The translations under genes were made by a program, and so were the position numbers. A DNA stretch of 59,861 bases, the filler included. It is 6 parts of 6 records of this genome, joined end to end, with 100 filler letters (N's around TTAATTAATTAA, not from the genome) between each part and the next. Parts side by side here need not be neighbours in the genome. Positions count along the whole stretch, not along the records: positions 6,418 to 24,246 come from SRR31156797_6744; 5 more parts are not named here. One strand, 5' to 3'. Below the pieces are notes generated by a model, which made no database searches, had not been told where the DNA came from, and saw only the letters and a program-made list of their open reading frames with translations. Positions 3,910 through 48,965 of the stretch are shown here, one piece after another. Position 1 is the first letter of the stretch, and each line of letters starts with the position of its first letter.

Positions 3910-4401
3910 TTAAAATGATCCATCTTTAACTGCATTTACCAGACCTTCTCTTTTGATTAAGTCTAATACAAATTCAGGGAATGGTTCTGCTTGATATTCT
4001 TTTCCTGTTGTTACATTTTTGATTTTACCAGCTACGAAATCAACTTCAATTTCATCTCCGTTTGAAATTCCTGCTACTGCTTCAGGACACTCAAGAATTG
4101 CTAATCCAATATTGATTGAATTTCTATAGAAAATTCTAGCAAAACTATTCGCGATTACACATGAAATTCCTGCTGCTTTGATTGCGATAGGTGCATGTTC
4201 TCTTGAAGAACCGCATCCGAAGTTATCTCCTGCAACCATTACATCTCCATTATTAATTTTACTTAAGAAATCTTTATCTAAATCTTCCATACAGTGAGCT
4301 GCTAAGTGAGCAGGGTCTGTAGAGTTTAAGTATCTTGCTGGTATAATTACATCTGTATCTATATGATCTCCATATTTAATTACTGTTCCTTTTGCTAACA
4401 T
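3910..4401 (-). CDS. leuD: 3-isopropylmalate dehydratase small subunit (short clostridial/archaeal type)
   Basis: [23 protein letters not shown] and SFARIFYRN motifs; between leuC and leuB. Confidence 0.95.
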
Positions 4402-9500: not shown

Positions 9501-9540
9501 TGTTAATTATGTGATATAGTATTCCTTTTTTCATATTCAT
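6514..9540 (-). CDS. AcrB/AcrD/AcrF-family RND transporter permease
   Basis: 1008 aa, two-fold repeated TM/extracytoplasmic layout; GMLVDNAIV, GIVVNNAILL and RIRPILLTTLTT motifs. Confidence 0.93.
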   Translation of the reverse strand: MNMKKGILYHIINNRKVTLFVTVMIILTGIFSYNVLVKQESPDFEIPFVIMNISYVGASASEVEKTVMSPLEESMKQIDGYKHYTSYSKNNGGTYFMEFAYDIDREETFNEARTTADDFMLSMPEDVELVSYTAGSLTTTGFIYSLIPKGEQNMEELEDAAEFIADKISDLEMVSSTYIQGNQETKIVVEVNNDAINKLTLTRYNLASLISTMDSRLPGGTLNDEDSTSVQSLSSLNSQSDVENLIVGVNPATGTPITVNDFASISKENIDTVYTKYDGKQGVLIYGYFEENIDQTDFAESLKTDINDIVSDYSDEYELSEIVYYPDDVKESNDEFFVNLLIGIGLVILISFFSMGYRNAIIVSVSLPTSVMMTLAIMKIMEIKLHQISIAALIIAIGMLVDNAIVITESMKRRIEEGDDRFTAVIDGTKEVAIPVLTSTITTIAAFSPLLFIPSIAGDYIKSVPQVLIIALSSSYIVSVTLMPCLAYIIFNKLDKKTRKGRFINFAGKSVGWLLKKKVLVIIAVVILAVFAAVVFTDIGLSFFPKADKDILYINVTNKEGNDIENTKEKMLLIEEEIAKQDNISHYLMSVGNGAPRFWDTMRPFFASPDFGQFIVQVELDEEYISNTEYAEYLQRILNNIDDPLKIEVMELQLSEPILAPISIQVTSDSLDDLYDAKEYTIDILNKIDGVTYIRDDEADSINQYDIEYNMSALTMNNLVLSLVQTEVNFAINGYEAAAIRDGDDQIPIKIIDYEMDYDDLMELIVGHNAEGKAVKLSEIAQIHTSSNKSSITRYDGKYAITVLTNVKSGYSSGDIMEEFRNSINEDLFNSIKWQYSGEQQSIIDNFSDVGMMALFAAFLIVLIIVIQFNSFRQTAIIIMSIPLAASGAIYGLYVTGYPLSFTALFGTVSLMGIVVNNAILLIDSINNKRRDGLTVNEATIIGTKRRIRPILLTTLTTIIGLVPLMVSGSELFAPMAIAIGSGLLFSTIITLLLIPVLYSILVRDKSK

Positions 9541-9550
9541 CTCCTTTTAT

Positions 9551-9705
9551 GTTCATAGCTAAAATTAACTAAGTTACACATAACCACTAATATATGCTTA
9601 GTCCTAATCATTAAGTACTAGAAAATCAGCAAACCATTGACTGTCCACACCATCGCTTCATAGTTCATTCACTAACTGCAGGTTCGCTTATACTTCATAA
9701 AAGCT
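9551..9705 (-). repeat. Copy A of a ~155-nt dispersed structured element (candidate ncRNA leader or MITE-like repeat)
   Basis: About 75% identical (117/156 columns, manual alignment) to 17311-17465; ends ~4 nt before the AAGGAG RBS of the RND gene. Confidence 0.8.
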
Positions 9706-9712
9706 GTTTATT

Positions 9713-9730
9713 AGTAAACTGTTGTTCATT
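9713..9730. promoter_or_regulatory. Putative TetR operator upstream of the RND gene
   Basis: AGTAAAC-tgtt-GTTCATT imperfect palindrome; matches the palindrome at 10401-10418 in the tetR promoter. Confidence 0.6.
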
Positions 9731-9746
9731 ATTGTTCCTTAATAAT

Positions 9747-9762
9747 ACGGGCAGTTGCCCGT
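9747..9762 (-). terminator. Small hairpin, possible terminator after tetR
   Basis: ACGGGCA-gt-TGCCCGT inverted repeat 12 nt past the tetR stop; weak U-tract. Confidence 0.5.
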
Positions 9763-9774
9763 TTACTGATCTAC

Positions 9775-10389
9775 TCAGGTATTATATACAGTCTGAAAAG
9801 CTGTATATGCTCGATTCTGAATATCTTTGTAGAACATGATAGTCATAATCTCCAGCCAACGAGTAAACTCCTTATTGTTCTCCTTTTCAATTAATAGCCT
9901 TACAATTGCATCGATATACGTACTTGAAATCAAATCAATAGTATACTTTATAGTATTTTCTGATATATTTAGTTTATTACGCTTTTTTTCGATTACTCCT
10001 TCCACTACAAAACTCTTAAAATGATCAATAATATTCTCGTACTTTGTTCCTTTTGCACCCTTTAGCATTATTATTAGTTCATCTCGGTGATTATTATGCA
10101 GATGTGATAAACTCGAAACAAGTTCTTTAGTAAAACTCTCAAATCCTACAACATCAAAATTCTCATCACTAACTCGTGTGATAATTATCATTATTTTTGA
10201 AAACACTGGATTAATTACTGCTTTGAAAATAGCATACTTATTCTTAAAATACCTATAAAGATTTCCTACTGTAATCCCAGCTTTCTCAGCAATAACTCGC
10301 ATAGTTGCTTTTTCATAGCCAAATTCCATAAATACATCTTTTGCTGAAGATAGTATACTCATTTTAATTTCATCTTTTAGAACCTGCAT
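9775..10389 (-). CDS. TetR/AcrR-family transcriptional regulator
   Basis: N-terminal HTH (GYEKATMRVIAEKAGITVGNLYRYFKNK); adjacent to the RND gene. Confidence 0.95.
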   Translation of the reverse strand: MQVLKDEIKMSILSSAKDVFMEFGYEKATMRVIAEKAGITVGNLYRYFKNKYAIFKAVINPVFSKIMIIITRVSDENFDVVGFESFTKELVSSLSHLHNNHRDELIIMLKGAKGTKYENIIDHFKSFVVEGVIEKKRNKLNISENTIKYTIDLISSTYIDAIVRLLIEKENNKEFTRWLEIMTIMFYKDIQNRAYTAFQTVYNT

Positions 10390-10504: not shown

Positions 10505-10543
10505 AAATGAGTCACTTCCTTAATAGCAGTCAGTGACTCATTT
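10505..10543 (-). terminator. Terminator closing the sugar-catabolic operon
   Basis: AAATGAGTCACT-N15-AGTGACTCATTT perfect 12-bp stem about 30 nt after the kinase stop. Confidence 0.75.
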
Positions 10544-10573
10544 ATTAATATTATTAACTTTGAGAAATCAGAA

Positions 10574-12052
10574 TTATAGTGAACATTTTTCTAGAAACTC
10601 TTTATACTTTTCTTCCCAAAGAGCACTATTTATAGGCATATACTCATCTAAATCAAAAGTATCTACAACGATTTGTCGAATTTCTTTCAATGAATTTATC
10701 TCTTTTGCACCGTATGCCTGTGTTAAGATATTGCCCGTCGATGTTGCTTCAACAGGACCTGCAATAACTTTAATACCCATAGCGTTAGCAGTAAATTGAT
10801 TCAATAATGTGTTTTGACTGCCTCCACCTATTATATTTACTACGTCTATTATTCTGCCTGATGCAGTACATAAATCATTGAACGAATACTTATATTTAAA
10901 TGCTAAGTTCTCTAATATTATCCTTGCTATTTGCCCAATATCATCTGGTGAAGGACTTATTTGTCCGGTCTTGTCCAGATATTCACAGATTGCTGTAAGC
11001 ATGTTATCAGGATTCAAAAATGCACTATCGTCTGGATCAATATACCCTGCAAATGGTTTTGCGGTCCTAGCCATATCTGTAATCTCACCATATGATAAAT
11101 TCTTGTTTTTCTTGACCCATTGTTTCTTTGACTGCTGCACAAGCCATAGACCCATCAAAGATTTCAGTAAGAGTATTTTGTCAAATCCCCCACCGGAATT
11201 TGACAAATTTCTAGCCTTTGTTTCCTGATTTATTATAGCTTTATCTAGCTCCAAAGTGGTCATTGACCAAGTACCTGAACTTATAAAAGCAATATCACTT
11301 TCAGTATTTGGTACTACTACAGCTGCACTTGCAGTGTCATGGACCGGAGGAGTAATGATTAAGCAGTCTTCCGAAACTCCTGTTTCATTAGCTACATCTT
11401 TACGAATCTTACCGATTACATCTCCTGCATATATGATTTCAGGCTGCAGCTTCTTTGGAATATCAAATATATCAAATATCTCATCTTCCCATTCGCCTTT
11501 AACCGTATTAAATAGATTAGATGTAGTTGATAAACAATACTCAGCCTTTGGAACTCCGCTTAGGAAATACTGAAGTAAATCAGCTGTAAACAGCATTTTC
11601 TCACCCCAGCAAAGTGCAGGATCATCCATTTGCTTTGCTGCTACTAGCTGATTCAATGTATTAATCTCCATGTATTCAATGCCTGTAAGCTCATATAATC
11701 TGCCAAGGTTTATCTTACTTTCAATTATCTTTGTTGTATCAATGTTTCTTTTAGCTCTGTAATGATACGGCATAGAGCATAGCTTACCGTTTTTATCCAA
11801 AATACCATAGTCTACACCCCATGTATCTACTCCCATACTGCATGGTGTTTTGCCATATTTGTCACTATAAATTTTCAGAGCATTCTTTATCTCGGTAAAC
11901 AGCCTGTATATATCCCATCTTAAGCTGCCATTTACATAAGTACCTTGTGTGGAAAATCTATAGATTTCTTCAGAAACCAATTTACCTTCAATGACTTCAC
12001 CAACTATAGCCCTTCCGCTTTCAGCTCCTAAATCAAAAGCAATATGTTTCAT
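10574..12052 (-). CDS. Rhamnulokinase/L-fuculokinase-family FGGY sugar kinase
   Basis: AFDLGAESGR, GVDTWGVDY, HDTASA, FISSGTWS, IIGGGSQN and AGPVEAT motifs; directly downstream of fucI. Confidence 0.92.
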   Translation of the reverse strand: MKHIAFDLGAESGRAIVGEVIEGKLVSEEIYRFSTQGTYVNGSLRWDIYRLFTEIKNALKIYSDKYGKTPCSMGVDTWGVDYGILDKNGKLCSMPYHYRAKRNIDTTKIIESKINLGRLYELTGIEYMEINTLNQLVAAKQMDDPALCWGEKMLFTADLLQYFLSGVPKAEYCLSTTSNLFNTVKGEWEDEIFDIFDIPKKLQPEIIYAGDVIGKIRKDVANETGVSEDCLIITPPVHDTASAAVVVPNTESDIAFISSGTWSMTTLELDKAIINQETKARNLSNSGGGFDKILLLKSLMGLWLVQQSKKQWVKKNKNLSYGEITDMARTAKPFAGYIDPDDSAFLNPDNMLTAICEYLDKTGQISPSPDDIGQIARIILENLAFKYKYSFNDLCTASGRIIDVVNIIGGGSQNTLLNQFTANAMGIKVIAGPVEATSTGNILTQAYGAKEINSLKEIRQIVVDTFDLDEYMPINSALWEEKYKEFLEKCSL

Positions 12053-12119
12053 AAGTATACCTTCATCTTTTAATCATTCTTAATTATTATCTTACAACAG
12101 ATTTTCTAGTCTAGCTAAT

Positions 12120-13883
12120 TTATCTGCCATATATTGAACCATAATTTTGACAAGCTCTGTAGTCAGCGTCTTCCTTACTTTGAGTACCGAACATGCCCCA
12201 TGCTGATGGTCTGAATACGTCATTCTCATTAACATTATGCATATTTACTGGTATCCTAAGCATAGAAGCAAGAGTTATTAAATCTGCACCGATATGTCCG
12301 CAGCTAATTGCTCCGTGATTAGCACCCCAATTCGCCATAACGCTGTATACGTCTTGGAAAGCACCTTTACCTGTAAGATTTGGAACAAACCATGTTGTAG
12401 GCCATGTAGGACTTGTTCTCTCTGTCAAGATTCTATTTGCATCATCATCAAGCTCTACGGTGTAGCCCTCTGCTATCTGCAAAACTGGTCCAATTCCCTT
12501 AACAATATTTATTCGGCTCATTGTTACAGGCATATTTCCCTTTGTATAGAATAGTGATGAGAATCCGCCACCTCTGAAATATCCCAAATCAGCAGGACAC
12601 CACTTAGTTGCATCTAGACATTTATACATATCGCTATCAGAAATTTCCCAAAATGGTTTCATTACAGGATTTCCATTCTCATCAGACTGCTGTCCGCTGG
12701 CATCCAAGCATGTTGCACCTGAGTTGATTAAGTGGATGATACCGTTTTCAGCTTTACCAGTTAGTTTTTTGCCTGTTACTCTTTCGACTGCTTCAGGACT
12801 CCAGTATGTTCTTACATCTGAGAAAATCTGTGCTGTATTAGTCAGCAGCTTACCAAACAACATTGATGCACCATTTAGTGAGTCATTTTCTGTAGCCATA
12901 ACATATGGTTCTCTCTTGCCGTTCCAGTCAAAAGATGAACATAAAATAGCTTCCAAGAAGTCAGCATTTGGGTAATGATCTGTCCATTGTCTCTGCCCTT
13001 GGAAACCAGCAGCAATTGCATTGTGACCTTTTGCTTCTTCTGTAAATCCGATTTCTGCAAGTTTTGGATTGCCATTCATCAAATCCTTTGCAATTATTGC
13101 ACATTTGACAACAAATTCCCACTGTTTATCTTTTTCTTCTCTTGATGCTTGTTCGCTATTGTCATCCCTACCCTCTTGGCAGTATTCATTTTTCCACTTA
13201 AGAGCTTTCTCAAACTCATCTTTATCATATATTCCTTCATCTACTCTTCGAATAAATTCAGTCATATCTACCTGCTCGGTTCTCATACCAAGGTAGTCTT
13301 GGAAAAAATCATCATCAACTTTTGAGCCAGCAATACCCATTGATACATTACCACAAGCAAGATAGCTCTTCCCTTTCATTTCACCTACGGCTACTGCAGC
13401 CTTAGCAAAACGCAGAATTTTCGTCTGTACATCCTCGGGAATACTTGTGTCATCACTATCCTGAACATCTCTGCCATATATTCCATAGGCAGGTAAACCT
13501 CTTTGGTTATGAGCAGCTAAAACTGCTGCAAGGTATACTGCACCAGGTCTTTCAGTACCGTTAAATCCCCAAACAGCTTTTGGTAAAAGAGGATCCATAT
13601 CCATAGTTTCAGTACCATAGCACCAGCATGGTGTCACAGTCAGCGTAGCGCACACACCTGCTCTGGCAAATTTCTCTTCGCATGCTGCTGCCTCAGATAC
13701 TCTTCCGATGGTTGTGTCTGCAATTACACATTCTACAGGGTTTCCCTGCCTGTCTTTTAGGTTTTCAGAGATTAGCTTCGCTGCGGATTTCGCCATATTC
13801 ATTGTTTGTTCTTCAAGTCCAGCTCTTACACTTAGTTTGCCTTCTCTAGCATCAATTGTAGGTCTAATACCAATTTTAGCCAT
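12120..13883 (-). CDS. fucI: L-fucose/D-arabinose isomerase
   Basis: [49 protein letters not shown] and NWGANH motifs; 587 aa. Confidence 0.96.
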
Positions 13884-13897
13884 TTTATTCCTCCTTC

Positions 13898-15187
13898 TTA
13901 ACTTATGTCTCCTTCAAATTCTTCGTATCCAATTTTAGCGTAAATATCAATTAATTCTGATAATTTTTTATTTTTATTTTCTCCGGCAAATAGTCCCTGT
14001 GAAATATCCTCGCTGGCTTTTAGCTCATGTCCTATTAACGCCCAAGTATTATTTATCAGGTGAATAAATATATCTTCAAATAACTCTTCGCAGATAAATG
14101 ATTGTCTCGGTTGATTTATGTCCTCTCCGTTAATCTGATAGAAGCTATGCTTCCTGCACAGTTTTATTAATCTATCCAGCTGATCACGAGAATTTCTAGA
14201 TGGCATATATGCAATAGCATCAAATCCAATCTCTTTGTTGTATTCCATTAGTTCATCCAAGAAGCTATCTTCAAATTTTTGCGCCTTTTTATCTCCTGTT
14301 ACAGAATCACCAACATCGCCCAGATATGCATAAGCAGGTATAGCCCCAATCTCATGAGCAAAGTCTATAACTTCTTTAACAGGCAGTATTTCAGGATACT
14401 CAGCCTCAATGAACATGCGTTTAACGAATGTGCTCTTTAGAACATTCAAAAGGTCATATGAGAAAGTATCGTTTGATTCATCTTCTAAATAACCTCTTTG
14501 CTTTGTATTTAATCCAATATTTAGTACATTTTCTATGTAATCAATTAATTCGTCTCTTGATTTTGTCTTCTCTATTATCTTGTTTCCCAGAGCATACAGA
14601 ATATGCCTCTCTGTTATGCTCCCTCCATCGTTAAAATATGAAATTGGTATGACATCTTTATTAAAATCCAGATTAATATCAGGTACAATTTCATTAATAC
14701 GGCTGACCATATCCTTATTTCTTTCATTTCGTGCAATTCTGATTTTGGATAAGAATTTTTCAGCCTTGTCTATGTTCTGATGAGGTACACCATGAACACA
14801 CATGTAAGCACAGCCAATCTGATCAGGACTATTAAGCCTTACATCTGCAAACGGTGTATCCTTCCAGTCAGTTCTCATTTCGAATCCGATAGTAGTTGCA
14901 AGATTCATAATACGTCCTGCTTCAAGGAATTCTTTTGCACCTGCTATTGAATCATGATCCATTATTCCTACAGTATTTAGCCCTGCATTATATGCTTCGT
15001 ATACTATTCTGGTAGGTGAATAAGGTGAAAAAGAGTACGTTGAATGAACATGGTTATTTGTATAACCTTTTTTCTTAGTTCTCTCACCAATGCCTGAAAC
15101 AAATTCACTTAATGCACTAAGTCTTTTATCTGCCGAATCTGCGTTCATTTTTTCTATTAATAAACTATTATCCATATTTCTTTTCAA
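13898..15187 (-). CDS. PHP-domain metal-dependent phosphoesterase-like protein
   Basis: NNHVHSTYS (HxH), GIMDHDS and GFEMR PHP motifs; C-terminal GEDINQ in place of GSDxH; start may be 15175. Confidence 0.8.
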
Positions 15188-15218
15188 CCTTTAACATTTT
15201 AGCGAACACTATTGCTCG

Positions 15219-16004
15219 TTATGTCATTTGCTGACCGCCAGTTACATTAATTGCCTGGCCTGTCATATATGATGCCTTATCGCTTGCCAAAAATACCAGT
15301 AGATTCTCCACATCCTCATATTCGCATGACCGTTTCAGTGGAACTTGGTTGATATATTTTGCTCTCACTTCTTCTTCCGAAATACCTTGATTCTTGGCAT
15401 ATTGCTTAAATAAACTATTTGTCCAAAGTGGTGAGTTCAATAGATTACCTGGGCAAATTGCATTTACTCTGATATTATCTTCTGCCAGTTCCAGAGCTAA
15501 ACTCTGAACCAATCCAATACCTCCAAACTTACTTGCGGCATATGCAGAATTTTTGTAAGAACCTTTTTTCCCTGATTTAGAGTTGATTTGAATTATAACC
15601 CCTCCATTTTCATTCTTTTTCATAAATTGTGCTGCTGCTTTAGATGTATTGAAAAAACCACAAAGGTTTACATCAACAACCAGCTTCCACTTATCAGGAT
15701 CAAATTCATCTATACTGCCCGAAATTAGTATCGCTGCGTTGCTTATCAGTATATCAATCTTACCAAATTTATCAAACGCAGCCTGCATTAATTCAGTACA
15801 TTGATCATAATTAGATACGTCTATTTTCATTGCAATTGCATTATCGATACTATCTGCAGTTGCTTGTGCACCTTCTAGGTTCATATCACCGATAGCAACA
15901 TTTGCACCTTCAGCAGCCACTCTCTTTGCCAAAGCTTGACCCAGCCCTTGTGCTGCTCCTGTTATTACTACAGTTTTTCCCTTTAGCCTATTATAATCAG
16001 ACAT
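15219..16004 (-). CDS. SDR oxidoreductase, sorbitol-6-phosphate 2-dehydrogenase (SrlD/SorD)-like
   Basis: TGAAQGLG, IQINSKSGKKGS, YAASKFGG, PGNLL and SYMTGQAINVTGG; start moved to ATG 16004 behind AGGAGG (ORF-track extension overlaps the upstream gene). Confidence 0.88.
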   Translation of the reverse strand: MSDYNRLKGKTVVITGAAQGLGQALAKRVAAEGANVAIGDMNLEGAQATADSIDNAIAMKIDVSNYDQCTELMQAAFDKFGKIDILISNAAILISGSIDEFDPDKWKLVVDVNLCGFFNTSKAAAQFMKKNENGGVIIQINSKSGKKGSYKNSAYAASKFGGIGLVQSLALELAEDNIRVNAICPGNLLNSPLWTNSLFKQYAKNQGISEEEVRAKYINQVPLKRSCEYEDVENLLVFLASDKASYMTGQAINVTGGQQMT

Positions 16005-16029
16005 TTTTCCTCCTAATAAGAAAACAATT

Positions 16030-17292
16030 TTAGTTGATTTTTTCTCCATTTTCCAGTAGGTATTTCTCTGCTTTACCACTCCAGAATCCACCATTTGCAT
16101 TTGTGATTTCAGCAAGTTTAGCAAAGAACTCGTCTTCTCTGCCTATTTCTTCAAAATCATCAATAGCTGTCAATGGCATTTTTATCTGATTATATATAAG
16201 CTTCTTTCCTCCTGGAATTTCTGGCAAATGCTTTGTAGCTTCTACTACGCTATCCAGTCCGCCGATATGAGTAATCATAGCAGTAGGGTTTACAATTCCT
16301 TTTGACATCAAATCAATAGATTCTATCATGTCATCGGTATTTCCTCCGCTGGTTCCTATAATATGAGTCGCTGAATAATGAACATTATAGAAATTCAATT
16401 TTGCACTGAATTCAGTGTTAGTTGGTCCTGCAAAGAAGTTCAGACATCCATCTTTTGCCAGCAGTCTGTCTGCCTGTTCGACTACAGGTACAACAGGAGC
16501 CATTACAAAAACATCATCATATCCTTTAGAATCAGTTAGTTTCAGCAAATCAGCTTCGGATTCTGGATTTCTTGTATTTATATAGTGTAGCTCTACCCCA
16601 TTTTTTGCAGCTTCCTCCACAGTATATATCCTTTGCGCTCTTGATAACCTGTCATCATCAATATCTGTTACAACTAATAGTTTTGGCTTTCTATCACAAT
16701 GAATAGCATAATCAATAGCACCTAGTCCCATAGGACCTGCACCTGCAAGTATTGCTAGGTTACCGCCCTCTACAATACCCATTTTGTGTTCGTATGTCCC
16801 CTGAGTTATATGATATGAAGCATGAAACGCTCCAACTATACAGCTCATTGGCTCTGCAAGACTACCATAGAAATATACATCTGAATCATAGTTAAGCAAA
16901 CATTTCATTTCCATTACTTCATTTGGAATAATTATGTAGGTCGCATCTCCGCCAATATATTTAAACGAATATCCTGGTGCGTCCAAAGAACCCTTATAGT
17001 TTAAGGCAGGTTGAATAGAAAATTTATTACCAGCTTTAAACTCATTCTTCCACTTATCTCCCACTTCGATTATCTCTCCGCAGAATTCGTGACCAATAAT
17101 AACTGGATTTTGTGCAACATCATCAGGTACCCTCTTATGATCTTCCCCTTGCTTGGCTGCCTTATAGGATGACATACATAGACTGTCTGAATATATTTTT
17201 GCTAATATCTCTGAATCAGTTATCTGCGGTAATTCAAATTCCTCTAATCTTAGGTCATATTTTCCGTAGAGACGTACGGCTTTTGTTTTCAT
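16030..17292 (-). CDS. Zinc-binding (MDR) dehydrogenase, L-sorbose-1-phosphate reductase (SorE)-like
   Basis: MKTKAVRLYGKYDLRLEEFELP, DSLCMSSYKA, GHEF, AEPMSC, GAGPMG and GTSGGNTDDM are SorE-family features; start ATG 17292 after AAGGAG. Confidence 0.85.
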   Translation of the reverse strand: MKTKAVRLYGKYDLRLEEFELPQITDSEILAKIYSDSLCMSSYKAAKQGEDHKRVPDDVAQNPVIIGHEFCGEIIEVGDKWKNEFKAGNKFSIQPALNYKGSLDAPGYSFKYIGGDATYIIIPNEVMEMKCLLNYDSDVYFYGSLAEPMSCIVGAFHASYHITQGTYEHKMGIVEGGNLAILAGAGPMGLGAIDYAIHCDRKPKLLVVTDIDDDRLSRAQRIYTVEEAAKNGVELHYINTRNPESEADLLKLTDSKGYDDVFVMAPVVPVVEQADRLLAKDGCLNFFAGPTNTEFSAKLNFYNVHYSATHIIGTSGGNTDDMIESIDLMSKGIVNPTAMITHIGGLDSVVEATKHLPEIPGGKKLIYNQIKMPLTAIDDFEEIGREDEFFAKLAEITNANGGFWSGKAEKYLLENGEKIN

Positions 17293-17310
17293 ACTAGCTC
17301 CTTGTATAAT

Positions 17311-17465
17311 GTACACAGCTAGAAATTGACTAAATTACACATATCCGCTTATGCATGCCTAGTCCTAGTTACTAAATATTAGTTAATTAGTAACCATTGA
17401 CTGATCACACCTTCGCTATGTATTTCTTCCTCTAGCTGTAGTTTCGCTTTTGTTTAACAAAAGCT
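17311..17465 (-). repeat. Copy B of the ~155-nt dispersed structured element
   Basis: Homologous to 9551-9705; nested stems 17314-17325/17429-17440, 17361-17364/17399-17402 and 17367-17375/17387-17395; ends ~7 nt before the AAGGAG RBS. Confidence 0.8.
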
Positions 17466-17497
17466 CCTTTATATTTAAAATTTATGTAGTTAGTAGA

Positions 17498-19972
17498 TTA
17501 AACTCCACGTTTTGCATTTCGTATTTGTTCTACGCTTGTAAAGTTAGCAGTACATGTATGACCTGCCAGAGGCAATATCTTCTCATGTATTGCATCAATT
17601 ATCCATGATACTTGTGGGAAGAATGCATTTTCCAGCTCATGTGCAGGTGTTATCCAGTTCTTTGCTCCAACTACTACAGGAGGTGCATCAAGGTAATCAA
17701 ATGCAAGTTCAGAGATGTTCTGTGCTAAGTCATTCATATGAGAGCCACGTGCGCATGCATCACCTGTGATAAGGATTCTGCCAGTCTTTTTCACAGACTC
17801 TAATACTTTTTCATAATTAAATGGTACTAGGCTTCTTGCATCAATGACTTCAGTTGATAAACCATACTTTTCTTCTAATTCTTTTGCAGCATCAAGTCCT
17901 TTGTATAAAGATGAACCAATTGTCAGTATTGTCATATCACTGCCTTGTTTCTTTACATCAGGCTCACCGAATTCAATTTCGTAGCTTTCTTCTGGCACTC
18001 CGCCTTCATGGAATTGCTCTGCAACATCATAAATTCTTTGGCTTTCTAGGAATACAACTGGGTCTGTTCCATTTAGTGCAGCAGTCATAAGTCCCTTTGC
18101 ATCATATGGTGTTGCTGGGAATACAACTTTTAGTCCGGGGATATGTGTGCAAAGTGCTGACCAGTCCTGTGAATGCTGTGCTCCATATTTAGAACCAACC
18201 GAAGCTCTCAATATCAGCGGCATCTTTATTACTCCTGCACTCATAGACTGCCATTTACTCATTTGGTTAAATATTTCATCTCCTGCTCTTCCTAAGAAGT
18301 CAATATACATAAGTTCTACTACCGCTCTACCTCCAGTCATTGCATAACCTACGCCTGAGCCTACAATAGCAGCTTCTGATATTGGTGAGTTGAAGAATCT
18401 ATGATATGGCAGGCTCTCTGTTAATCCTCTATATACAGCGAATGCTCCGCCCCAGTCTCTATTATCTTCACCATAAGCGATAAGAGTTGGATCCTCGTAG
18501 AATTTATCCAGCATAGCTTCAAAGATACCATCACGCAGCTGATATGCTCTGTTCTTGCTTACTGCTTTTCCTTTATCATCGTATGCGAAACGTACTTTCT
18601 TTGCAATTTGCTTTACTCTTGGATTCTCTTCTTTCGGCAGTAGTACAACAGGTTCTCTTGATTCATCCATGCTGGCAACCTTATCATTTGAAAACATTAA
18701 ATCAGCAATTATATCTGGATTTTTTACCAAATCCATTCGTGGAGAAACTTTTTCATCAATTGCTAATACAAAAGCATTAAAGATATATTTCTTTACTTGC
18801 TCTTCTACTTTCTTTAACTCTGTTTTAGTTGATACCTTAGCCGCAAGCAACTGAGATTTGAATTCAACAATAGAATCATTTTCCTGCCACATTGCGATTT
18901 CTTCTTTTGTTCTGTATGTAGATGCATCTGATGGAGAGTGTCCGCTGAAACGATATGTAACCACATCCAGCAATACAGGACCTTCGCCCTTTTCTACTAT
19001 TTCTCTTTTTCTTCTGTAAGCATCAATAACAGCCAGAGGATTGTATCCGTCAACTCTTTCTGCATGCATCTGGCTAGGAGTGATTCCTGCACCTAATCTG
19101 GCAACTACATCGTATGCCATTGTTTCGCCGCATGTCTGACCGCCCATACCATAGTGGTTATTAAATATATTAAAGATAATTGGAAGTCCGCCGTTGTAAC
19201 CGTCTTCCCATAGTGTTTTGAATTGATCCATTGCTGAGAAGTTCATTCCTTCGTACACAGGTCCGCATCCAATTGATGCATCACCTATATTGCAGATAAC
19301 CATTCCGTCCTTTTGATTGCATCTTTTGTAAAGAGCTCCACCAACAGCTACAGAACCTGATCCGCCAACAATTGCATTGTTTGGATAAATACCAAATGGT
19401 GTAAAAAATGCATGCATTGAGCCGCCAAGCCCCTTGTTAAATCCTGTTTCTCTAGCAAATATCTCTGCTAAAGTACCGTATATTAAGAACTCTCTTGCTA
19501 TCTCTTTTACATCTTTAGATTTGGTTTTTTCCTTTACAATCTTATATATTGCTCCATCAAAGAAAGATTCCATAATTTTAGTAAGCTCATCATCTGACAA
19601 CTTCTCAATTGAAGAAAGTCCTTTTGCTAAAATCTCACCATGACTTCTGTGTGAGCCAAATGTAAAGTCCTCAACAGTAAGGTCAAATGCCTGTCCAACA
19701 TATGCTGCTTCCTGACCTATACCTAAGTGAGCAGGACCAGGATGATGGTATTCAACATCTTCATATTTTCCTGTTACTTTAATTGAATTCAGCATGCTTT
19801 CAAATTCACGGATTACAAGCATATCTCTGAATATATTCAGGAATTCTTCTTTTGTAAAATTACCTTTCTCGTCCTTAACCGTCTTTTGGTAAGTATTTAA
19901 TGGAATGTCTTCAAATTTTGAAATTCCTGCTTTTCTTTTGTCCTTTGGGTCTACTAACAAACTCTTAGTCAT
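17498..19972 (-). CDS. Fused E1 alpha/beta TPP-dependent dehydrogenase (acetoin/2-oxoacid dehydrogenase family)
   Basis: Alpha part: HLGIGQEA, HRSHG, GGSMH, GDAS...NN TPP motif, YRFSGHSPSD; beta part: GED, SPISEAAIVG, GAQHSQ, PATPYDAKGL, EVIDARSLVP. Confidence 0.93.
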   Translation of the reverse strand: MTKSLLVDPKDKRKAGISKFEDIPLNTYQKTVKDEKGNFTKEEFLNIFRDMLVIREFESMLNSIKVTGKYEDVEYHHPGPAHLGIGQEAAYVGQAFDLTVEDFTFGSHRSHGEILAKGLSSIEKLSDDELTKIMESFFDGAIYKIVKEKTKSKDVKEIAREFLIYGTLAEIFARETGFNKGLGGSMHAFFTPFGIYPNNAIVGGSGSVAVGGALYKRCNQKDGMVICNIGDASIGCGPVYEGMNFSAMDQFKTLWEDGYNGGLPIIFNIFNNHYGMGGQTCGETMAYDVVARLGAGITPSQMHAERVDGYNPLAVIDAYRRKREIVEKGEGPVLLDVVTYRFSGHSPSDASTYRTKEEIAMWQENDSIVEFKSQLLAAKVSTKTELKKVEEQVKKYIFNAFVLAIDEKVSPRMDLVKNPDIIADLMFSNDKVASMDESREPVVLLPKEENPRVKQIAKKVRFAYDDKGKAVSKNRAYQLRDGIFEAMLDKFYEDPTLIAYGEDNRDWGGAFAVYRGLTESLPYHRFFNSPISEAAIVGSGVGYAMTGGRAVVELMYIDFLGRAGDEIFNQMSKWQSMSAGVIKMPLILRASVGSKYGAQHSQDWSALCTHIPGLKVVFPATPYDAKGLMTAALNGTDPVVFLESQRIYDVAEQFHEGGVPEESYEIEFGEPDVKKQGSDMTILTIGSSLYKGLDAAKELEEKYGLSTEVIDARSLVPFNYEKVLESVKKTGRILITGDACARGSHMNDLAQNISELAFDYLDAPPVVVGAKNWITPAHELENAFFPQVSWIIDAIHEKILPLAGHTCTANFTSVEQIRNAKRGV

Positions 19973-19987
19973 TTTTAACTCCTTAAT

Positions 19988-21352
19988 CTATAGTTGAAAA
20001 ATTGCTTCTCTGATTACTTCAGAAACTGTAGGATGTGGAAATACTATCTCCTTAATTTCGTTGATTGTCATTTCCTTTTCTATCATTATCGCGGCACTTA
20101 CGATAATCTCTGATGCATAGTTTCCAATAATATGTACACCAAGTAATTTATTGTACTTATTGTCAACAACTATTTTTATTATTCCATCGCCGCCTTCATT
20201 CTCTGCCATATATCTGCCTGAGTAGTTCATGGTAATGCTTTTTACTGTGACATCTAAGCCTTTTGCTTTTGCCTGCTCCTCTGTGATACCAACTGCTCCA
20301 ATCTCTGGATTTGTATAAATAACACTAGGGATAGCTTCATATCTCATAGTATCTTTTTTAGCAAACATATTGTTTACTGCAACTTCAGCTTCTCTGTATG
20401 CAGTATGTGCCAGCATAGATTTTCCGTTTACATCACCTGCCGCATATACTTCTGGTCTGTTGGTTTTGCATTTTTCGTCTACGACAACTGCTCCTCTGTC
20501 AGTCTCAACTCCAATATTCTCCAAACCAATATCCTTAGTATTTGCTCTTCTGCCGATAGATAACAGAACTTTATCAGCTTTTATTGTCTTAGTCTCATTA
20601 TTTTCTTCATATATTACTGAGTCTTTTGTTATCTCGATAACTTTACATCCAAGATTAAAATTGACACCTTTCTTTTCATAATTCTTCTGCAATATTGATG
20701 CCAAGTCTTTATCTATTTGCCCGCCTACTTTATCAAGCATTTCTATTACATTTACTTTACTGCCAGCCGAATTAAAGTAACTTGCCATTTCAAGTCCAAT
20801 AACTCCGCCACCGATTACTACCAATTCATTTGGCACATCTGTAATTTCCAGTATTTCTTTGTTAGTCAGAACGAACTGGTTTTCCAGCCCTTCCTTTAAA
20901 CCAGGTATTGGGGGAACCGCAGGTAAGGATCCAGTAGCTATTAGTATCCTTTTTCCAACATATGTGTTGTCACCTGCGGCGATTTCGTAGCCATCATTTG
21001 TCTTTTGCTTTATACACCCTTTAGCGTCAACTATTGTAACTCCATTAGCCTTTACAGCGGCTCTTACTCCGCCTGTCAGCTTCGCTACAACCTTATTCTT
21101 GCGTTTTACCACAACCTTATGATTAATACTTACATTGTCTGCATGTACACCATATTTCTTACCCATAGATGCCCCATCAGCAAGCTTTGCAGAATATAGA
21201 TAAGTTTTAGTAGGTACACAGCCTTTGTTTAGGCATACTCCGCCGATATGTTCTTTTTCAATTAATAGAGTCTTTAATCCTTCATGACCTGCTCTTTCAC
21301 AAGCTAAATATCCTGCTGGACCTCCTCCGATAACAATTAAATCGTAAATCAT
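19988..21352 (-). CDS. lpdA: Dihydrolipoyl dehydrogenase (E3)
   Basis: GGGPAGY, GGVCLNKGCVPTK redox disulfide, GGGVIGLE and HPTVSE. Confidence 0.95.
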   Translation of the reverse strand: MIYDLIVIGGGPAGYLACERAGHEGLKTLLIEKEHIGGVCLNKGCVPTKTYLYSAKLADGASMGKKYGVHADNVSINHKVVVKRKNKVVAKLTGGVRAAVKANGVTIVDAKGCIKQKTNDGYEIAAGDNTYVGKRILIATGSLPAVPPIPGLKEGLENQFVLTNKEILEITDVPNELVVIGGGVIGLEMASYFNSAGSKVNVIEMLDKVGGQIDKDLASILQKNYEKKGVNFNLGCKVIEITKDSVIYEENNETKTIKADKVLLSIGRRANTKDIGLENIGVETDRGAVVVDEKCKTNRPEVYAAGDVNGKSMLAHTAYREAEVAVNNMFAKKDTMRYEAIPSVIYTNPEIGAVGITEEQAKAKGLDVTVKSITMNYSGRYMAENEGGDGIIKIVVDNKYNKLLGVHIIGNYASEIIVSAAIMIEKEMTINEIKEIVFPHPTVSEVIREAIFQL

Positions 21353-21362
21353 TATTTATCTC

Positions 21363-22676
21363 CTATTTTGCCAACTGCAAATTGAAATTCTCTAATGCCA
21401 TGCATAATTCTTTTAGGAATCTTGCTGCTGGAGCACCGTCAAGTGCTCTATGGTCAAATGTCAGCGATAATCCCATGCTAGGATATGTAGTAACTTCATC
21501 ATCCACTACCTTAACCTTTTGTTCAATAGTACAGACCCCCAAGATACAAGTCTGAGGTGGATTTATTACTGGTGTGAAGCTCTCTATACCGAATGTTCCT
21601 AGATTTGTAACAGTAAATGTACCACCAGCAAGTAAATCTGGTGAAATATTACCGCTCTTAGCTTGGTTAATAGTTTCCTTCGCAGCCATTGAGAATTCAT
21701 TCAAAGTCATATTATTAGCACCAAAAACAGTAGGAACCAATAACCCTCTGTCTGTATCTACAGCAATACCCATATTGACATCTCTGAAATATCTCATTGT
21801 ATCTCCAAGGTAATGAGCATTACATGCTTTGTGATTACGAAGAACTTTTACTGTTGCATATACTACTATATCGTTTAATGTGATATTGTTTAGTCCTAAA
21901 GCTTCACCCATTTCCTTAACGGATTTTCTAAATGCCATTATTCCAGTCGCATCAAATGAAGCATTTAGTGTAAGCTGAGCCATGTCTGAAAGTGAAGCAT
22001 GCATAGATTTTGCAATAACTTTTCTTACATTTGACAGCTTCTCATCTTCAAATTCCGATTCAATAGGTGCTAAGCTTTGCTTCACAGATGTTTGTTTGTT
22101 CAAATCGTTTGTTGAAACAGCACCGGCAAGTCCTGAACCTTCAATGCCGCCTTTATATTCACCGGCAGATGCACTGGTTATTTTGATACCTTCTGATGCT
22201 AGTTTTAGTACGTCTTGTTCTATTATTCTTCCATATGGACCAGTGGCCGATGCCTTTGTCAAATCAACATTATGTCTCTCAGCCTGTATTCTAGCTCTAG
22301 GTGATATTTTGTAATCACCTTTTTCACTTTTTTCTGGAGCAGTTTCAACAGCGTTTACTGTTTTTTGGATTTCTTCTTCTGCAGCTTCTTCCTTTTGAGG
22401 TTCATCGTCTGACTGCATGAATTCTGAAATATCCTCACCTTCATTTCCTATTACGCATACATTGTCAAGGCAAGGTACATCATCGCCTTCTTCGGCTAAA
22501 AGCACTAGCAAAGTACCCTCAAATTCAGATTCAATATCAAATGCTGCTTTGTCTGTTTCGCAGGTAAACAACACATCTCCTACCTTTACTTCATCACCAA
22601 CATTTTTACACCACTGTGTAATTATACAGCTTTCGACTGATTGCCCTTGTCTGGGCATGATTACTGCATGTGCCAT
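21363..22676 (-). CDS. Dihydrolipoamide acyltransferase (E2)
   Basis: Lipoyl domain ETDKAA, E3-binding domain (SPRAR...TGPYGRI), catalytic DHRALDG. Confidence 0.95.
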   Translation of the reverse strand: MAHAVIMPRQGQSVESCIITQWCKNVGDEVKVGDVLFTCETDKAAFDIESEFEGTLLVLLAEEGDDVPCLDNVCVIGNEGEDISEFMQSDDEPQKEEAAEEEIQKTVNAVETAPEKSEKGDYKISPRARIQAERHNVDLTKASATGPYGRIIEQDVLKLASEGIKITSASAGEYKGGIEGSGLAGAVSTNDLNKQTSVKQSLAPIESEFEDEKLSNVRKVIAKSMHASLSDMAQLTLNASFDATGIMAFRKSVKEMGEALGLNNITLNDIVVYATVKVLRNHKACNAHYLGDTMRYFRDVNMGIAVDTDRGLLVPTVFGANNMTLNEFSMAAKETINQAKSGNISPDLLAGGTFTVTNLGTFGIESFTPVINPPQTCILGVCTIEQKVKVVDDEVTTYPSMGLSLTFDHRALDGAPAARFLKELCMALENFNLQLAK

Positions 22677-22699
22677 TATGCATCCTCCTAAAATTTTAA

Positions 22700-23461
22700 T
22701 TAAGCTATTACAAGCTCCACTTTATCATTTATTTTCTCTTTAGTTTCTTTATCTATACCCTTATCTGTAATAAACACGTCAATATCTTCCCACTTTGCAA
22801 ACTCTATCATGGAATATGTCTTTGCCTTACTGGAATCACCAAGTACAATGCTCTTGTTTACGCTTTTTATCATTGCTCTTTTTATCTCTTCTTCTTCAAA
22901 ATTCTCAACACAAGGACCCATCCTGTCTTTAAAACCGCTTGTACCCAGCAGAGCTAAATCTGCTCTGATTTCTTCAATTGCTCTGATTGCCCAACCTCCT
23001 ACAATTGCATTGGAATTATTCCTGATGCGTCCGCCTAAAATGTATGTTGCAACCTTATAATCATCTAATATCTGAGCTGTTTTAGGACTGTTTGTAAAGA
23101 CCGTAATGTTATTCTTCATTGCCAGCATTTTTGCAAAAGCATATGTAGTGCTTCCTGCATCAATCAGCAAAATCATTCCGTCTGAAATGTATTCAACTGC
23201 TTTCTTTGCAATTATCATTTTTTCATCTGTAAATTTACTATGTTTTTCTAAAAAGCTAGGCTCTATTAATGAGTTGGCAACTACTGCACCACCGTACCCT
23301 TTCTTTGCAACACCCTTTTCCTCAAGGTATAGTAAGTCTTTTCGTATTGTTTCGGAAGACACATTAAAAAAATCTGAAAGCTCTGATACCTTAATCTTAC
23401 CTTCAGCAATAAGTTTCTTTTCTATAAATTGTCTTCTTTCATCAACTAATGTGTTTGCCAT
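22700..23461 (-). CDS. DeoR/GlpR-family transcriptional regulator (first gene of the sugar operon)
   Basis: VSSETIRKDL HTH, IDAGSTT, VFTNS and LGDSSK. Confidence 0.95.
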   Translation of the reverse strand: MANTLVDERRQFIEKKLIAEGKIKVSELSDFFNVSSETIRKDLLYLEEKGVAKKGYGGAVVANSLIEPSFLEKHSKFTDEKMIIAKKAVEYISDGMILLIDAGSTTYAFAKMLAMKNNITVFTNSPKTAQILDDYKVATYILGGRIRNNSNAIVGGWAIRAIEEIRADLALLGTSGFKDRMGPCVENFEEEEIKRAMIKSVNKSIVLGDSSKAKTYSMIEFAKWEDIDVFITDKGIDKETKEKINDKVELVIA

Positions 23462-23527
23462 AGGATACCTCCCCCCTCCCGGGTTGTGATTCGGCAGCTA
23501 TATCGCAACCAATTCCAATCAATCACA

Positions 23528-23556
23528 ATTATATATTAGCATTTTGTTGCTGTCAA
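23528..23556 (-). promoter_or_regulatory. Consensus SigA promoter of the deoR-led operon
   Basis: Minus strand TTGACA (23556-23551)-N17-TATAAT (23533-23528). Confidence 0.8.
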
Positions 23557-24373: not shown

Positions 24374-25240
24374 ATGATAAATGAGTTGAGAAGACAAGAA
24401 GAAGTTTCCAAAATAGAACCCGCAATAATGGACTTTCAATCGTTTAAACGGAATATATTGACGCGCATTCCTCGAGATGATGAAATCGACTCATATGAAA
24501 CTCATTATATTTTAGACTCCCAAATTATTGACTTGATGCAACGTGTAAATAATACGATGAAAAGCATTGGCAATATACCAAAGGAATTCTTGATTTTTGG
24601 TGGATGTAGCCCACACCGATGCCCAGGGGCCTTCGATGTTAACTTATTATTAAACTGCTATTACAATGTAAAAATCAAAGACGGGTTTACCTTAGACTAT
24701 ATTTATGCATACAATAACAATGGTGGCGAACCTTTAGTCTATTCTAGAAAACACCGCGAAAGACCATTTGACTTTTTAGATGAGTATTTTGCTCGATATA
24801 ATTTCATCAAACAACCTTTTATGCTATTAGGAAGTGAACCAAATCTTGAGTTAACAATGCCTTATACTCCTCAACTCATCTTTGAAAATACACCATTTTC
24901 TGTATTTCAATTTGGCTTAATGTGCATGAATATTCGTCGGTTCTATTTGCATTGGCACTCTAACTATAACGACAGGAAGTATTTATTAACCCAAAGCGGA
25001 CTCAATCGTTTCATTGCCAATAACGTAGGAAACCTGAATGATGATGAAGTAGTGGCTTTAAAAAAGATCGACTGCAGGCCTACCGTCAATTTCTACAAAG
25101 ATTTTGCCAAAATATCAATTATGTCTTATGAAGAAAATATTGGTTATTCTTTCGCACATATTTTGTTGAAATTCCCAAATATTTTTATAAAAGTGAATGA
25201 TAACATTGTTATTAAATCAAAAGCAAAACGACTTTACTGA
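24374..25240 (+). CDS. Hypothetical protein (may be 5'-truncated)
   Basis: 288-aa ORF, visibly more AT-rich than the rest of the contig; motif-like segments LDYIY..GGEPLVYSR and FYLHWHSNYND; no function recognised. Confidence 0.7.
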   Translation: MINELRRQEEVSKIEPAIMDFQSFKRNILTRIPRDDEIDSYETHYILDSQIIDLMQRVNNTMKSIGNIPKEFLIFGGCSPHRCPGAFDVNLLLNCYYNVKIKDGFTLDYIYAYNNNGGEPLVYSRKHRERPFDFLDEYFARYNFIKQPFMLLGSEPNLELTMPYTPQLIFENTPFSVFQFGLMCMNIRRFYLHWHSNYNDRKYLLTQSGLNRFIANNVGNLNDDEVVALKKIDCRPTVNFYKDFAKISIMSYEENIGYSFAHILLKFPNIFIKVNDNIVIKSKAKRLY

Positions 25241-25266
25241 AAAAAACCTGACAACCATCATAGCTG

Positions 25267-25298
25267 CGTAGGTTGGATTATCTCAGCGTAACTCAACA
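25267..25298 (+). repeat. Degenerate GTAG-type REP
   Basis: CGTAGGTTGGATTA-tctcagcg-TAACTCAACA: GTAG followed by an imperfect palindrome, between convergent genes. Confidence 0.55.
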
Positions 25299-25301
25299 GT
25301 A

Positions 25302-26864: not shown

Positions 26865-26948
26865 GCTTCACCTATGCAGTCCAACCTGAAACCGGTTTAA
26901 CTTATTCTATGTCATAACTCGATCTATTGGGATTCCTTTTCCTGTGAC

Positions 26949-27308
26949 TTAAAACAACCGGTCCGTCCGGCCTTCAAGGATGCGTTTGATTTCCAAAAGC
27001 CCTTTTTTGATATCGCGCATGGCGGAATCGGCGTCCCGCGACGGCGTCTTGCCGGCGGGTTCCGGGGCGCTGATTTGTTTTTTGGCCCCGGCGATTGTAT
27101 ATTTTTCGTCGTAGAGCAGACGCTTTATTTCAAGGAAAATGATAATATCCTTGCGGCGATAAAGGCGTTGTTTGGAAGAAGCGCGGTTAGGTTTGATCTG
27201 GGGAAATTCGGTTTCCCAGAATCGCAGGACATGAGGCTCAACCCCGACGATTTCGGCGGCCTCGCCAATTTTAAAATATACTTTGTCGGGAATATCAGGG
27301 GGGCGCAA
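26949..27308 (-). CDS. MerR-family HTH protein (conserved downstream of ihfA)
   Basis: YFKIGEAAEIVGVEPHVLRFWETEF...RLYRRKD; pheT-ihfA-merR synteny. Confidence 0.92.
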   Translation of the reverse strand: MRPPDIPDKVYFKIGEAAEIVGVEPHVLRFWETEFPQIKPNRASSKQRLYRRKDIIIFLEIKRLLYDEKYTIAGAKKQISAPEPAGKTPSRDADSAMRDIKKGLLEIKRILEGRTDRLF

Positions 27309-27335
27309 TATTCACCTCCCGTCCATAGTCATGAG

Positions 27336-27635
27336 TTATCCGGTCTCATTCCTGAGAGACTTGCGAATGGACTGGCTGGGTTTGAAAGTAAGCACGGTTC
27401 GGGCTTCTATGGTCATGTCGTCGCCGGTTTGAGGATTCCTTCCCCGGCGCTCCTTTTTTTTCCTGACTTCAAAGTTGCCCAATCCGGATATCTTGACGCT
27501 TTCACCCCTGGCCAGCGCATCCTTGATTATCTCAAAAAGATCGTCCACAACCCTGGCCGCGGCAGTGCGGGGTAAGCCCATTTTTTCCTGAACCACATCA
27601 ATGATATCGGCTTTTGTCAGGACGTTGTCACCCAC
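27336..27635 (-). CDS. ihfA: Integration host factor alpha subunit
   Basis: LTKADI, VKISGLGNF and GRNPQTG; immediately after pheT. Confidence 0.92.
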   Translation of the reverse strand: MGDNVLTKADIIDVVQEKMGLPRTAAARVVDDLFEIIKDALARGESVKISGLGNFEVRKKKERRGRNPQTGDDMTIEARTVLTFKPSQSIRKSLRNETG

Positions 27636-27667
27636 GGTTATCCTCCACAGCGGCCATGATTAAATTT

Positions 27668-48942: not shown

Positions 48943-48965
48943 CATCCTGGATTGAGAATCAGGCC

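Follow-up and report, generated by a model that had tools for sequence, protein, structure and literature searches.

How could an operon that carries an L-fucose isomerase and a ketose kinase, with no aldolase beside them, break down its sugar, and what would a complex of the 2-oxoacid dehydrogenase type be doing in it? This question is raised by a nine-gene unit on the minus strand (10505-23556) of a 59,861-nucleotide stretch of DNA made up of six joined parts, hereafter called the window. The initial annotation had placed there genes for a DeoR-type regulator, the E2, E3 and fused E1 components of the complex, two dehydrogenases, a PHP-fold protein, FucI and a kinase, and open reading frame (ORF) calls together with Pfam and NCBIfam searches found every gene in its place. 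We propose, at a probability of roughly 40%, that this operon represents a widespread type of module for the use of 6-deoxyhexoses, of which it would be a copy fed by fucose. With the same reserve, inversion of the keto group followed by thiamine- and lipoamide-dependent cleavage to acetyl-CoA and a tetrose phosphate would be the best reading of its chemistry, as it uses most of the parts. Fucose and rhamnose, which come from mucus, pectin and the glycans of algae, are substrates of major importance in the gut, in digesters and in sediments, and the textbook route for these two sugars loses half of the sugar as 1,2-propanediol, driving propionate cross-feeding.

The enzymes and a candidate route

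The entry steps are the same as those of the classical fucIK-fucA-fucO and rhaABD pathways. The gene at 12120-13883 (this and all other operon features are on the minus strand) encodes an L-fucose (D-arabinose) isomerase that passes both NCBIfam equivalog models of FucI (NF008220, 1068.9 against a cut-off of 775; TIGR01089, 1029.9 against 850) and, by family assignment, should make L-fuculose. Beside it, at 10574-12052, lies a predicted rhamnulokinase-like ketose kinase of the FGGY family, which is nearest to RhaB although it fails both equivalogs (RhaB model TIGR02627, 369.4 against 527.95; FucK, 128.3 against 470.9); kinases 36-40% identical to it adjoin the module in five related loci (L026, L029, L031, L042 and L048). 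The regulator, encoded at 22700-23461, is likewise of the DeoR type (Pfam HTH_DeoR and DeoRC, a sugar-phosphate sensor) and remains under all NCBIfam equivalog cut-offs, the best models being GlpR, AgaR and SrlR. Beyond these steps the operon departs from the classical pathways, since neither a FucA/RhaD aldolase nor a lactaldehyde reductase of the FucO type is present in the operon or in the scanned ORFs of the window, as had been stated for this locus before. The Pfam scan covered 46 ORFs of the window, leaving out those at 3910-4401, 5675-6253, 57380-57805 and 59244-59798, and found among them no iron-containing alcohol dehydrogenase, aldolase or sugar transporter. An ad hoc hidden Markov model (HMM) of the class II aldolase fold matched none of the 215 six-frame stretches of at least 60 amino acids in the window (E <= 10).

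Two NAD-type polyol or polyol-phosphate dehydrogenases are predicted by family assignment. One is a 'SorE-like' zinc enzyme of the medium-chain dehydrogenase/reductase (MDR) superfamily and of the polyol-dehydrogenase type (420 aa, 16030-17292; Pfam ADH_N and ADH_zinc_N). Aligned to sheep and human sorbitol dehydrogenase, it keeps the Cys, His-Glu and Glu-Pro positions of the Zn site, the GAGPMG motif and the NAD-type Asp218, and its identity across phyla is 61-78%. The ATG at 17292, which is preceded by AAGGAG, is the more likely true start, and the resulting 420 aa fits homologues of 417-433 aa. Two of its listed homologues bear the JGI label 'L-sorbose 1-phosphate reductase' and most others 'threonine dehydrogenase-like'; no NCBIfam model of SorE matched the MDR. 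The other is a SrlD-like short-chain dehydrogenase (SDR; 261 aa, 15219-16004), whose true start is the ATG at 16004 and which carries the motifs TGAAQGLG and YAASK (catalytic Tyr-Lys). It passes the NCBIfam model of the SrlD-type sorbitol-6-phosphate dehydrogenase (PRK12384, 330.8 against 307).

The third protein of this group (429 aa, 13898-15187; Pfam PHP) is confidently assigned to the COG0613-type PHP fold from its AlphaFold2 model (pLDDT 91.7), for which the best Foldseek matches were 3e0f/3o0f (3e0f with E = 1.3e-12 and a target TM of 0.75), RNase AM and Cv1693 (2yb1). H46, H48, D77, E103, H195 and H387 are invariant in the alignment. The canonical set of PHP metal ligands presumably includes a D-x-H near the C-terminal end; there is no invariant one here, the closest conserved stretch being GEDIN or G[ST]EHN in a sequence alignment, and the metal site of the protein appears to be deviant.

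The remaining enzyme genes are predicted, by family and motifs, to encode an intact thiamine/lipoamide E1-E2-E3 complex. The E2 dihydrolipoyl acyltransferase (21363-22676) has one lipoyl, one E3-binding and one 2-oxoacid_dh domain in Pfam, with the motifs TDKA (lipoyl-lysine) and DHRALDG. The E3 dihydrolipoyl dehydrogenase (19988-21352) passes TIGR01350 (481.9 against 408.8) and has the motifs CLNKGC and HPTVSE. E1 (17498-19972) is a fused alpha-beta thiamine-diphosphate enzyme of 824 aa (Pfam E1_dh, Transket_pyr and Transketolase_C), in which G230, D231, N268, N271, N272 and the Glu of YGED are invariant in 14 sequences. Such a complex might be an ordinary pyruvate dehydrogenase (PDH) or branched-chain 2-oxoacid dehydrogenase (BCKDH), co-transcribed by chance and drawing acetyl-CoA and NADH from pyruvate that is derived from dihydroxyacetone phosphate (DHAP). 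The nearest solved structures and NCBIfam models of E1, E2 and E3 are indeed those of PDH and BCKDH: in the PDB, human PDH E1 alpha comes closest to the alpha part of E1, and a Thermus 2-oxoacid dehydrogenase beta subunit to its beta part, and JGI names the E1 '2-oxoisovalerate dehydrogenase E1 component'. We nevertheless hold this explanation to be very improbable. The scores of E1 (at best 241.9 against 321 and 204.3 against 393.85) and of E2 (at best 263.6 against 722 and 258.4 against 445, both with PDH-type acetyltransferase models) are far under the equivalog cut-offs, genes for the MDR, the SDR and the PHP protein are tightly linked to the E1 subfamily in different phyla, as are deoxy-sugar genes, and an ordinary dehydrogenase would leave three conserved enzymes without a job.

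Two known systems suggest how these parts could work together. In the L-sorbose pathway, SorE is the L-sorbose-1-phosphate reductase and SorD/SrlD the glucitol-6-phosphate dehydrogenase; by likeness, the zinc MDR and the SrlD-type SDR could shift the carbonyl of a ketose-1-phosphate from C2 to C5 via a polyol phosphate, although the window holds no sor phosphotransferase-system genes and the 6-deoxy substrate would here give a methyl ketone instead of fructose-6-phosphate. In acetoin dehydrogenase (AcoA/AcoB/AcoC/AcoL), a thiamine-diphosphate E1 cleaves CH3-CO-CHOH-R to acetyl-lipoamide and an aldehyde, E2 makes acetyl-CoA and E3 makes NADH, and the same methyl-ketol cleavage would apply to the E1 of the window. 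Unlike acetoin dehydrogenase, however, this E1 is a single fused chain, the E2 is a classical 2-oxoacid_dh acyltransferase and not an alpha/beta hydrolase, and the presumed substrate is a phosphorylated sugar. The AcoC-type E2 model gives only 63 bits on the E2 of the window, and no Aco-specific model was passed.

In the route that we propose, the FGGY kinase would form L-fuculose-1-phosphate, the MDR would reduce its C2 to give a 6-deoxyhexitol-1-phosphate, and the SrlD-like SDR would oxidise C5 to give a 1-deoxy-ketohexose-6-phosphate, a methyl ketol like acetoin. E1 would cleave this compound, the acetyl group would pass via lipoyl-E2 to CoA while E3 makes NADH, and the other product, a tetrose-4-phosphate, would enter the pentose phosphate pathway. 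L-Fuculose-1-phosphate and L-rhamnulose-1-phosphate differ at C4 only, and because this is the carbon that would become the aldehyde, one and the same tetrose phosphate would arise from either sugar, which would explain how one module can serve either FucI or RhaA. By Fischer-projection reasoning, this tetrose would be D-threose-4-phosphate or L-erythrose-4-phosphate. We found no paper describing such a route, though lists of genes supplementary to the studies of Caldicellulosiruptor and Rhizobium cited below may contain relevant data. If it is true, 2-oxoacid dehydrogenase complexes would have a new type of reaction, and for a large share of anaerobes there would be changes in the fermentation products to be expected, in the balances of ATP and redox equivalents and in metabolic models.

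A module bound to 6-deoxyhexose genes

Relatives of the fused E1 number in the thousands and form a tight subfamily, with 65-89% identity among the matches listed; the best 120 listed have 68-89% identity and lengths of 811-825 aa. At least 598 confirmed E1 stretches came from a scan in which each species was represented by one genome. The best 80 of these, with E1 65-71% identical, were taken for a study of loci (38 from Bacillota, 40 from Bacteroidota and 2 from others), in which genes within 10 kb of E1 were counted by tblastn and all-against-all clustering, on contigs many of which are short. E2 was found in 63 of the 80 loci, E3 in 61, an SDR-family gene in 50, the PHP protein in 44 and the MDR in 41, with MDR, SDR and PHP jointly present in 35. 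The core of E1/E2/E3, MDR, SDR and PHP is a widespread module. Its recurrence had been named in the initial annotation as a check on the proposed pathway, together with co-occurrence with fucI or rha genes, and the second of these expectations was also borne out, both at the loci and in whole genomes. Even if the chemistry proves to be another, this is a conserved six-enzyme module of hundreds of species to which no function has been assigned so far.

The sole catabolic feeder genes that recur in the 80 loci are those for RhaA (12 loci), RhaT (9), FGGY kinases (17) and FucI (1). The only FucI locus, L032, also has a true FucK (551.8 against 470.9) and a transporter of the major facilitator superfamily. 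Regulators of the GntR (22 loci), DeoR (18) and AraC (10) types are found near the module, and lipoate ligases recur there also. At the level of whole genomes, we scored 250 Clostridia and 201 Bacteroidales, many of them incomplete, with Fisher tests that were uncorrected for phylogeny. The module was present in 55 of the Clostridia and 28 of the Bacteroidales. RhaA or FucI was found in 44 of the 55 module-positive Clostridia compared with 79 of the 195 module-negative ones (odds ratio 5.9, p = 2e-7), and FucI alone in 35 of 55 compared with 65 of 195 (odds ratio 3.5, p = 8e-5). The association with RhaA in Bacteroidales was stronger still (22/28 versus 25/173; odds ratio 21.7, p = 2e-11). From these associations it is evident that 6-deoxyhexose metabolism is where the module belongs. 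Moreover, among RhaA-positive Bacteroidales, a canonical RhaD above the cut-off was present in 4 of 22 module-positive genomes versus 20 of 25 module-negative ones (p = 3e-5); module and canonical RhaD are thus largely mutually exclusive in this order, in contrast to the rhaABD arrangement, and the module therefore stands in for RhaD there. Canonical RhaD showed no such contrast in Clostridia (4/32 versus 13/65, p = 0.41). Carried over to these samples, the proposed route would mean that about one-fifth of the Clostridia and one-seventh of the Bacteroidales turn the methyl end of fucose or rhamnose into acetyl-CoA and pass the other four carbons to the pentose phosphate pathway as a tetrose phosphate, making full use of the sugar and releasing neither lactaldehyde nor 1,2-propanediol, and that theirs is the first known complex of the 2-oxoacid dehydrogenase type to cleave a sugar phosphate; we advance this extension somewhat more tentatively than the reading of the operon itself.

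The loci also allow a different substrate to be considered, namely some other ketose or polyol phosphate, with the fucose and rhamnose genes merely frequent neighbours. D-Arabinose could pass through D-ribulose-1-phosphate and a pentitol phosphate to a pentulose-5-phosphate or, in a second version, a transketolase-like cleavage could load a glycolyl group onto lipoamide. FucI enzymes isomerise D-arabinose too, as the Caldicellulosiruptor enzyme does according to an excerpt of its description (PMC3637100). Furthermore, 11 of the 55 module-positive Clostridia have neither RhaA nor FucI, many loci in Clostridia are stand-alone modules with unrelated flanks, and MtlD-like, PfkB and HAD genes occur in a few loci. 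Against this, inversion of a pentose needs no E1-E2-E3 complex, yet E2 and E3 accompany most of the loci, and we know of no sink for glycolyl-CoA. In addition, the association at genome level is specific to RhaA and FucI, and no further isomerase family recurs in the 80 loci. We therefore regard a different substrate as quite improbable.

More distant homologues, which occur in general sugar loci and could also be cited for a different substrate, lie on two alpha-proteobacterial plasmids, pRL8 of Rhizobium johnstonii 3841 (L081, locus 10830-17649) and pSM30-1 of Pleomorphomonas (L082). Here the genes that follow a fused E1 of 52.6% identity to that of the window encode a lipoyl protein of 78 aa, an alpha/beta hydrolase, a carbohydrate kinase and a sugar-binding regulator, and beside them are sugar ABC transporters, a RbsD/FucU protein and a sugar-phosphate isomerase/epimerase. 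These homologues, with an E2 of the acetoin type, are a second, independent link of the E1 lineage to sugars. The acoB and acoC labels in one plasmid record's own annotation (acoC being the alpha/beta hydrolase) are the only hint of kinship with Aco; PMC3333776 does not deal with the homologue on pRL8.

The aldolase question

Several points weigh against inversion followed by cleavage to acetyl-CoA and a tetrose phosphate. The tetrose would have the wrong configuration for transaldolase or transketolase, and so an epimerising step would be needed; the PHP protein fits no assigned step of the scheme, and the substrate proposed for E1 is drawn from gene context only. It is pure speculation that the PHP protein or, in Bacteroidota, a class II aldolase-fold domain resembling the AraD-type 4-epimerase could carry out the epimerisation. 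Equally speculative alternatives are that the aldolase domain joins the tetrose phosphate to DHAP with the PHP protein as a bisphosphatase, or that the PHP protein is a tetrose-phosphate isomerase. As the search at this locus covered the window, fucA or fucO may possibly lie elsewhere in the genome, and the scanned ORFs include no sugar transporter through which the sugar could be supplied. In E. coli, fucA is outside fucPIK, so that an operon lacking an aldolase proves little.

Further points against the route come from the related loci and genomes. The term 'aldolase-free', used of this locus in the initial annotation, fails as a general family trait, for a class II aldolase-fold domain occurs in 27 of the 80 loci, including 10 of the 13 that carry RhaA or FucI. 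An aldolase carried routinely by homologous loci had been named beforehand as an outcome that would refute the proposal, and this outcome was seen in part. Among the Bacillota loci, 35 of 38 have no such fold within 10 kb. In 21 loci (20 of them from Bacteroidota) the SDR makes up the C-terminal part of a longer protein, of about 650-730 aa, whose N-terminal domain is Aldolase_II, with a linker; all 21 of these long fusions keep the Glu, the third His, the H-x-H and GGGNTS. The Glu and the three His would be the Zn ligands, as in FucA and RhaD, and the fused domain could simply be the aldolase. Among the matches listed, a PF00596 gene was found in 48 of the 55 module-positive Clostridia, in 41 of the 44 that are also RhaA/FucI-positive and in all 32 that are RhaA-positive, a blunt test because PF00596 also covers AraD and MtnB. 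The genomes G209, G212 and G242, positive for FucI and the module, have no PF00596 among the matches listed, compared with 1 of 79 module-negative genomes with RhaA or FucI (p = 0.13); these three measure 1.4-2.7 Mb and come with no completeness figure.

These aldolase domains would suit a different role for the module, in which the ketose-1-phosphate is split to DHAP and L-lactaldehyde by a class II aldolase (the RhaE-like domain, or else a FucA/RhaD encoded elsewhere), and the module disposes of the lactaldehyde oxidatively. A RhaW-like SDR would then, for example, form lactate or methylglyoxal, the complex would yield acetyl-CoA and CO2 or formate, and the MDR would be a lactaldehyde/propanediol oxidoreductase acting as redox sink. 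We think this role unlikely, but it has the frequency of PF00596 in RhaA/FucI-positive genomes and the separate position of fucA in E. coli on its side, as well as the long fusions with their intact Zn site, which stand in rha loci and have the architecture of RhaEW. RhaEW (YuxG) is bifunctional, an L-rhamnulose-1-phosphate aldolase as well as an L-lactaldehyde dehydrogenase, and both activities were shown in vitro, according to an excerpt of Rodionova 2013 (PMC3870299) in which a dehydrogenase complex is not mentioned. The long fusions were rejected as RhaEW equivalogs, with 229.3-304.7 bits against the TIGR02632 cut-off of 567.75. The SDR of the window differs further in having no aldolase domain at all, by Pfam and by the six-frame HMM, and falls outside RhaEW. 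RhaEW organisms such as B. subtilis, to our knowledge, need no E1-E2-E3.

Oxidative disposal of lactaldehyde also fails to account for much of the module. Both dehydrogenases resemble enzymes of the polyol or polyol-phosphate type, and that of the window with an SDR fold is above the SrlD cut-off; there would be no role for the PHP protein, for the adjacent FGGY kinase or for neighbouring transaldolase and transketolase genes, and the module includes no enzyme that converts lactate to pyruvate. Aldolase domains are also seldom adjacent to the module in Clostridia (3 of 38 loci), and the three FucI- and module-positive genomes with no PF00596 among the matches listed speak in the same direction. 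SDR genes of intermediate length (339-394 aa) keep the linker while the aldolase domain is gone, and therefore this domain can be lost while the module stays; many lineages have shed it from the SDR gene and kept the rest of the module. Transaldolase adjoins the module in four loci (L032, L063, L064 and L071), and transketolase in two (L019 and L033). Transaldolase is found only where the SDR gene has no aldolase domain, in 4 of 8 mid-length and 0 of 20 long Bacteroidota forms (Fisher p = 0.003, calculated by hand). These neighbours fit the tetrose phosphate that cleavage by E1 would release. In addition, nine Bacteroidota loci (for example, L062 at 17110-18408), as well as the genomes G327, G354 and G206-G208, have a class II aldolase with two domains in tandem (about 432 aa), whose best NCBIfam match is the 3-oxo-tetronate-4-phosphate decarboxylase OtnC (159 against 250). 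OtnC acts on a four-carbon sugar acid phosphate, and the match would fit chemistry at the tetrose level.

The aldolase fold and the PHP protein are also found together in a single-contig Clostridia genome of 2.56 Mb (G404), whose E1 scores best in the Clostridia sample but is only 70.5% identical and lies in a stretch of 52% GC; this genome is not a near substitute for that of the window. A gene for a 389-aa RhaE-like aldolase-fold protein is there divergently paired with the PHP gene (L083, C1:1529551-1532139), at a distance of 12 kb from E2-E3-E1 and of 26 kb from FucI, and no MDR or SDR gene is found in the 40 kb covered. The PHP gene adjoins an aldolase-fold gene in Bacteroidota as well. 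This arrangement indicates that the module can be dispersed, with PHP and the aldolase fold staying neighbours.

The only experimental data that we found on a comparable cluster are from Caldicellulosiruptor saccharolyticus and are cited here from excerpts of the reports. Csac_0865-0876, which includes an isomerase, an annotated aldolase and the SDR Csac_0868, is strongly induced on rhamnose (PMC4187192, PMC3561251). Csac_0874-0872 are described as 'putative E1, E2, and E3' with no known PDH activity, and none has been reported for these clostridia, which argues against an ordinary PDH (PMC3561251); Csac_0868 is listed elsewhere as a candidate 'acetoin dehydrogenase' (PMC3637100). That Csac_0874-0872 belong to the E1 subfamily of the window is inferred from the annotation of the three genes as E1, E2 and E3. 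As in the window, E1-E2-E3 stand together with deoxy-sugar genes, whereas the annotated aldolase is present and 1,2-propanediol is excreted 1:1 from rhamnose. The full balance of 1,2-propanediol, acetate, H2 and CO2 is 1:1:1:1 (PMC4187192) and indicates that the bulk flux in batch culture passes through lactaldehyde, a further point against cleavage of a methyl ketol. Although this yield also supports an aldolase acting ahead of the module, it speaks equally against oxidative disposal of lactaldehyde, and the balance is compatible with PDH or with pyruvate:ferredoxin oxidoreductase as well.

Boundaries and surroundings of the operon

Both ends of the transcription unit drawn in the initial annotation were supported. 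A predicted sigma-70-type promoter (TTGACA-17 nt-TATAAT, 23528-23556) matches the consensus at 12 of 12 positions and is located upstream of deoR, at about 65 nt from its start. The promoter scan as such gave 54 sites compared with 48.2 +/- 7.7 in shuffled sequences, which is not above chance, and weight is therefore given only to the perfect match and to where it lies. At the other end, an intrinsic terminator hairpin followed by UUUUGAU (10505-10543) folds with -20 kcal/mol (z = -6.5; 0 of 200 shuffles as good); it was not listed by the terminator scanner because its loop is too long. The intergenic gaps measure 10-67 nt, except for an untranslated spacer of 205 nt between E1 and the MDR (17293-17497). 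This spacer holds a 19-nt palindrome (17446-17464), which could be an operator, a processing site or an internal attenuator; Rfam gave no match in the window.

The GC content between 10 and 24 kb is uniform (34-40%). Directly downstream of the operon, at 6514-10389, are a TetR regulator, which has a perfect promoter of its own (10450-10423), and a pump of the AcrB type in the resistance-nodulation-division family; both appear unrelated to the operon. Elsewhere, two blocks of 41-61% GC, at 25200-30000 and at about 45400-53000, stand out from the rest of the window (22-40%), and both adjoin genes that seem truncated. At 30324-33287, the histidine kinase stops after HisKA, with no HATPase domain, and the phosphoglucomutase at 53403-54233 has domains III-IV only; pheT (27668-30073) has no pheS alongside. 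These features point to foreign DNA or to a chimeric assembly, and the operon studied here lies outside both blocks.

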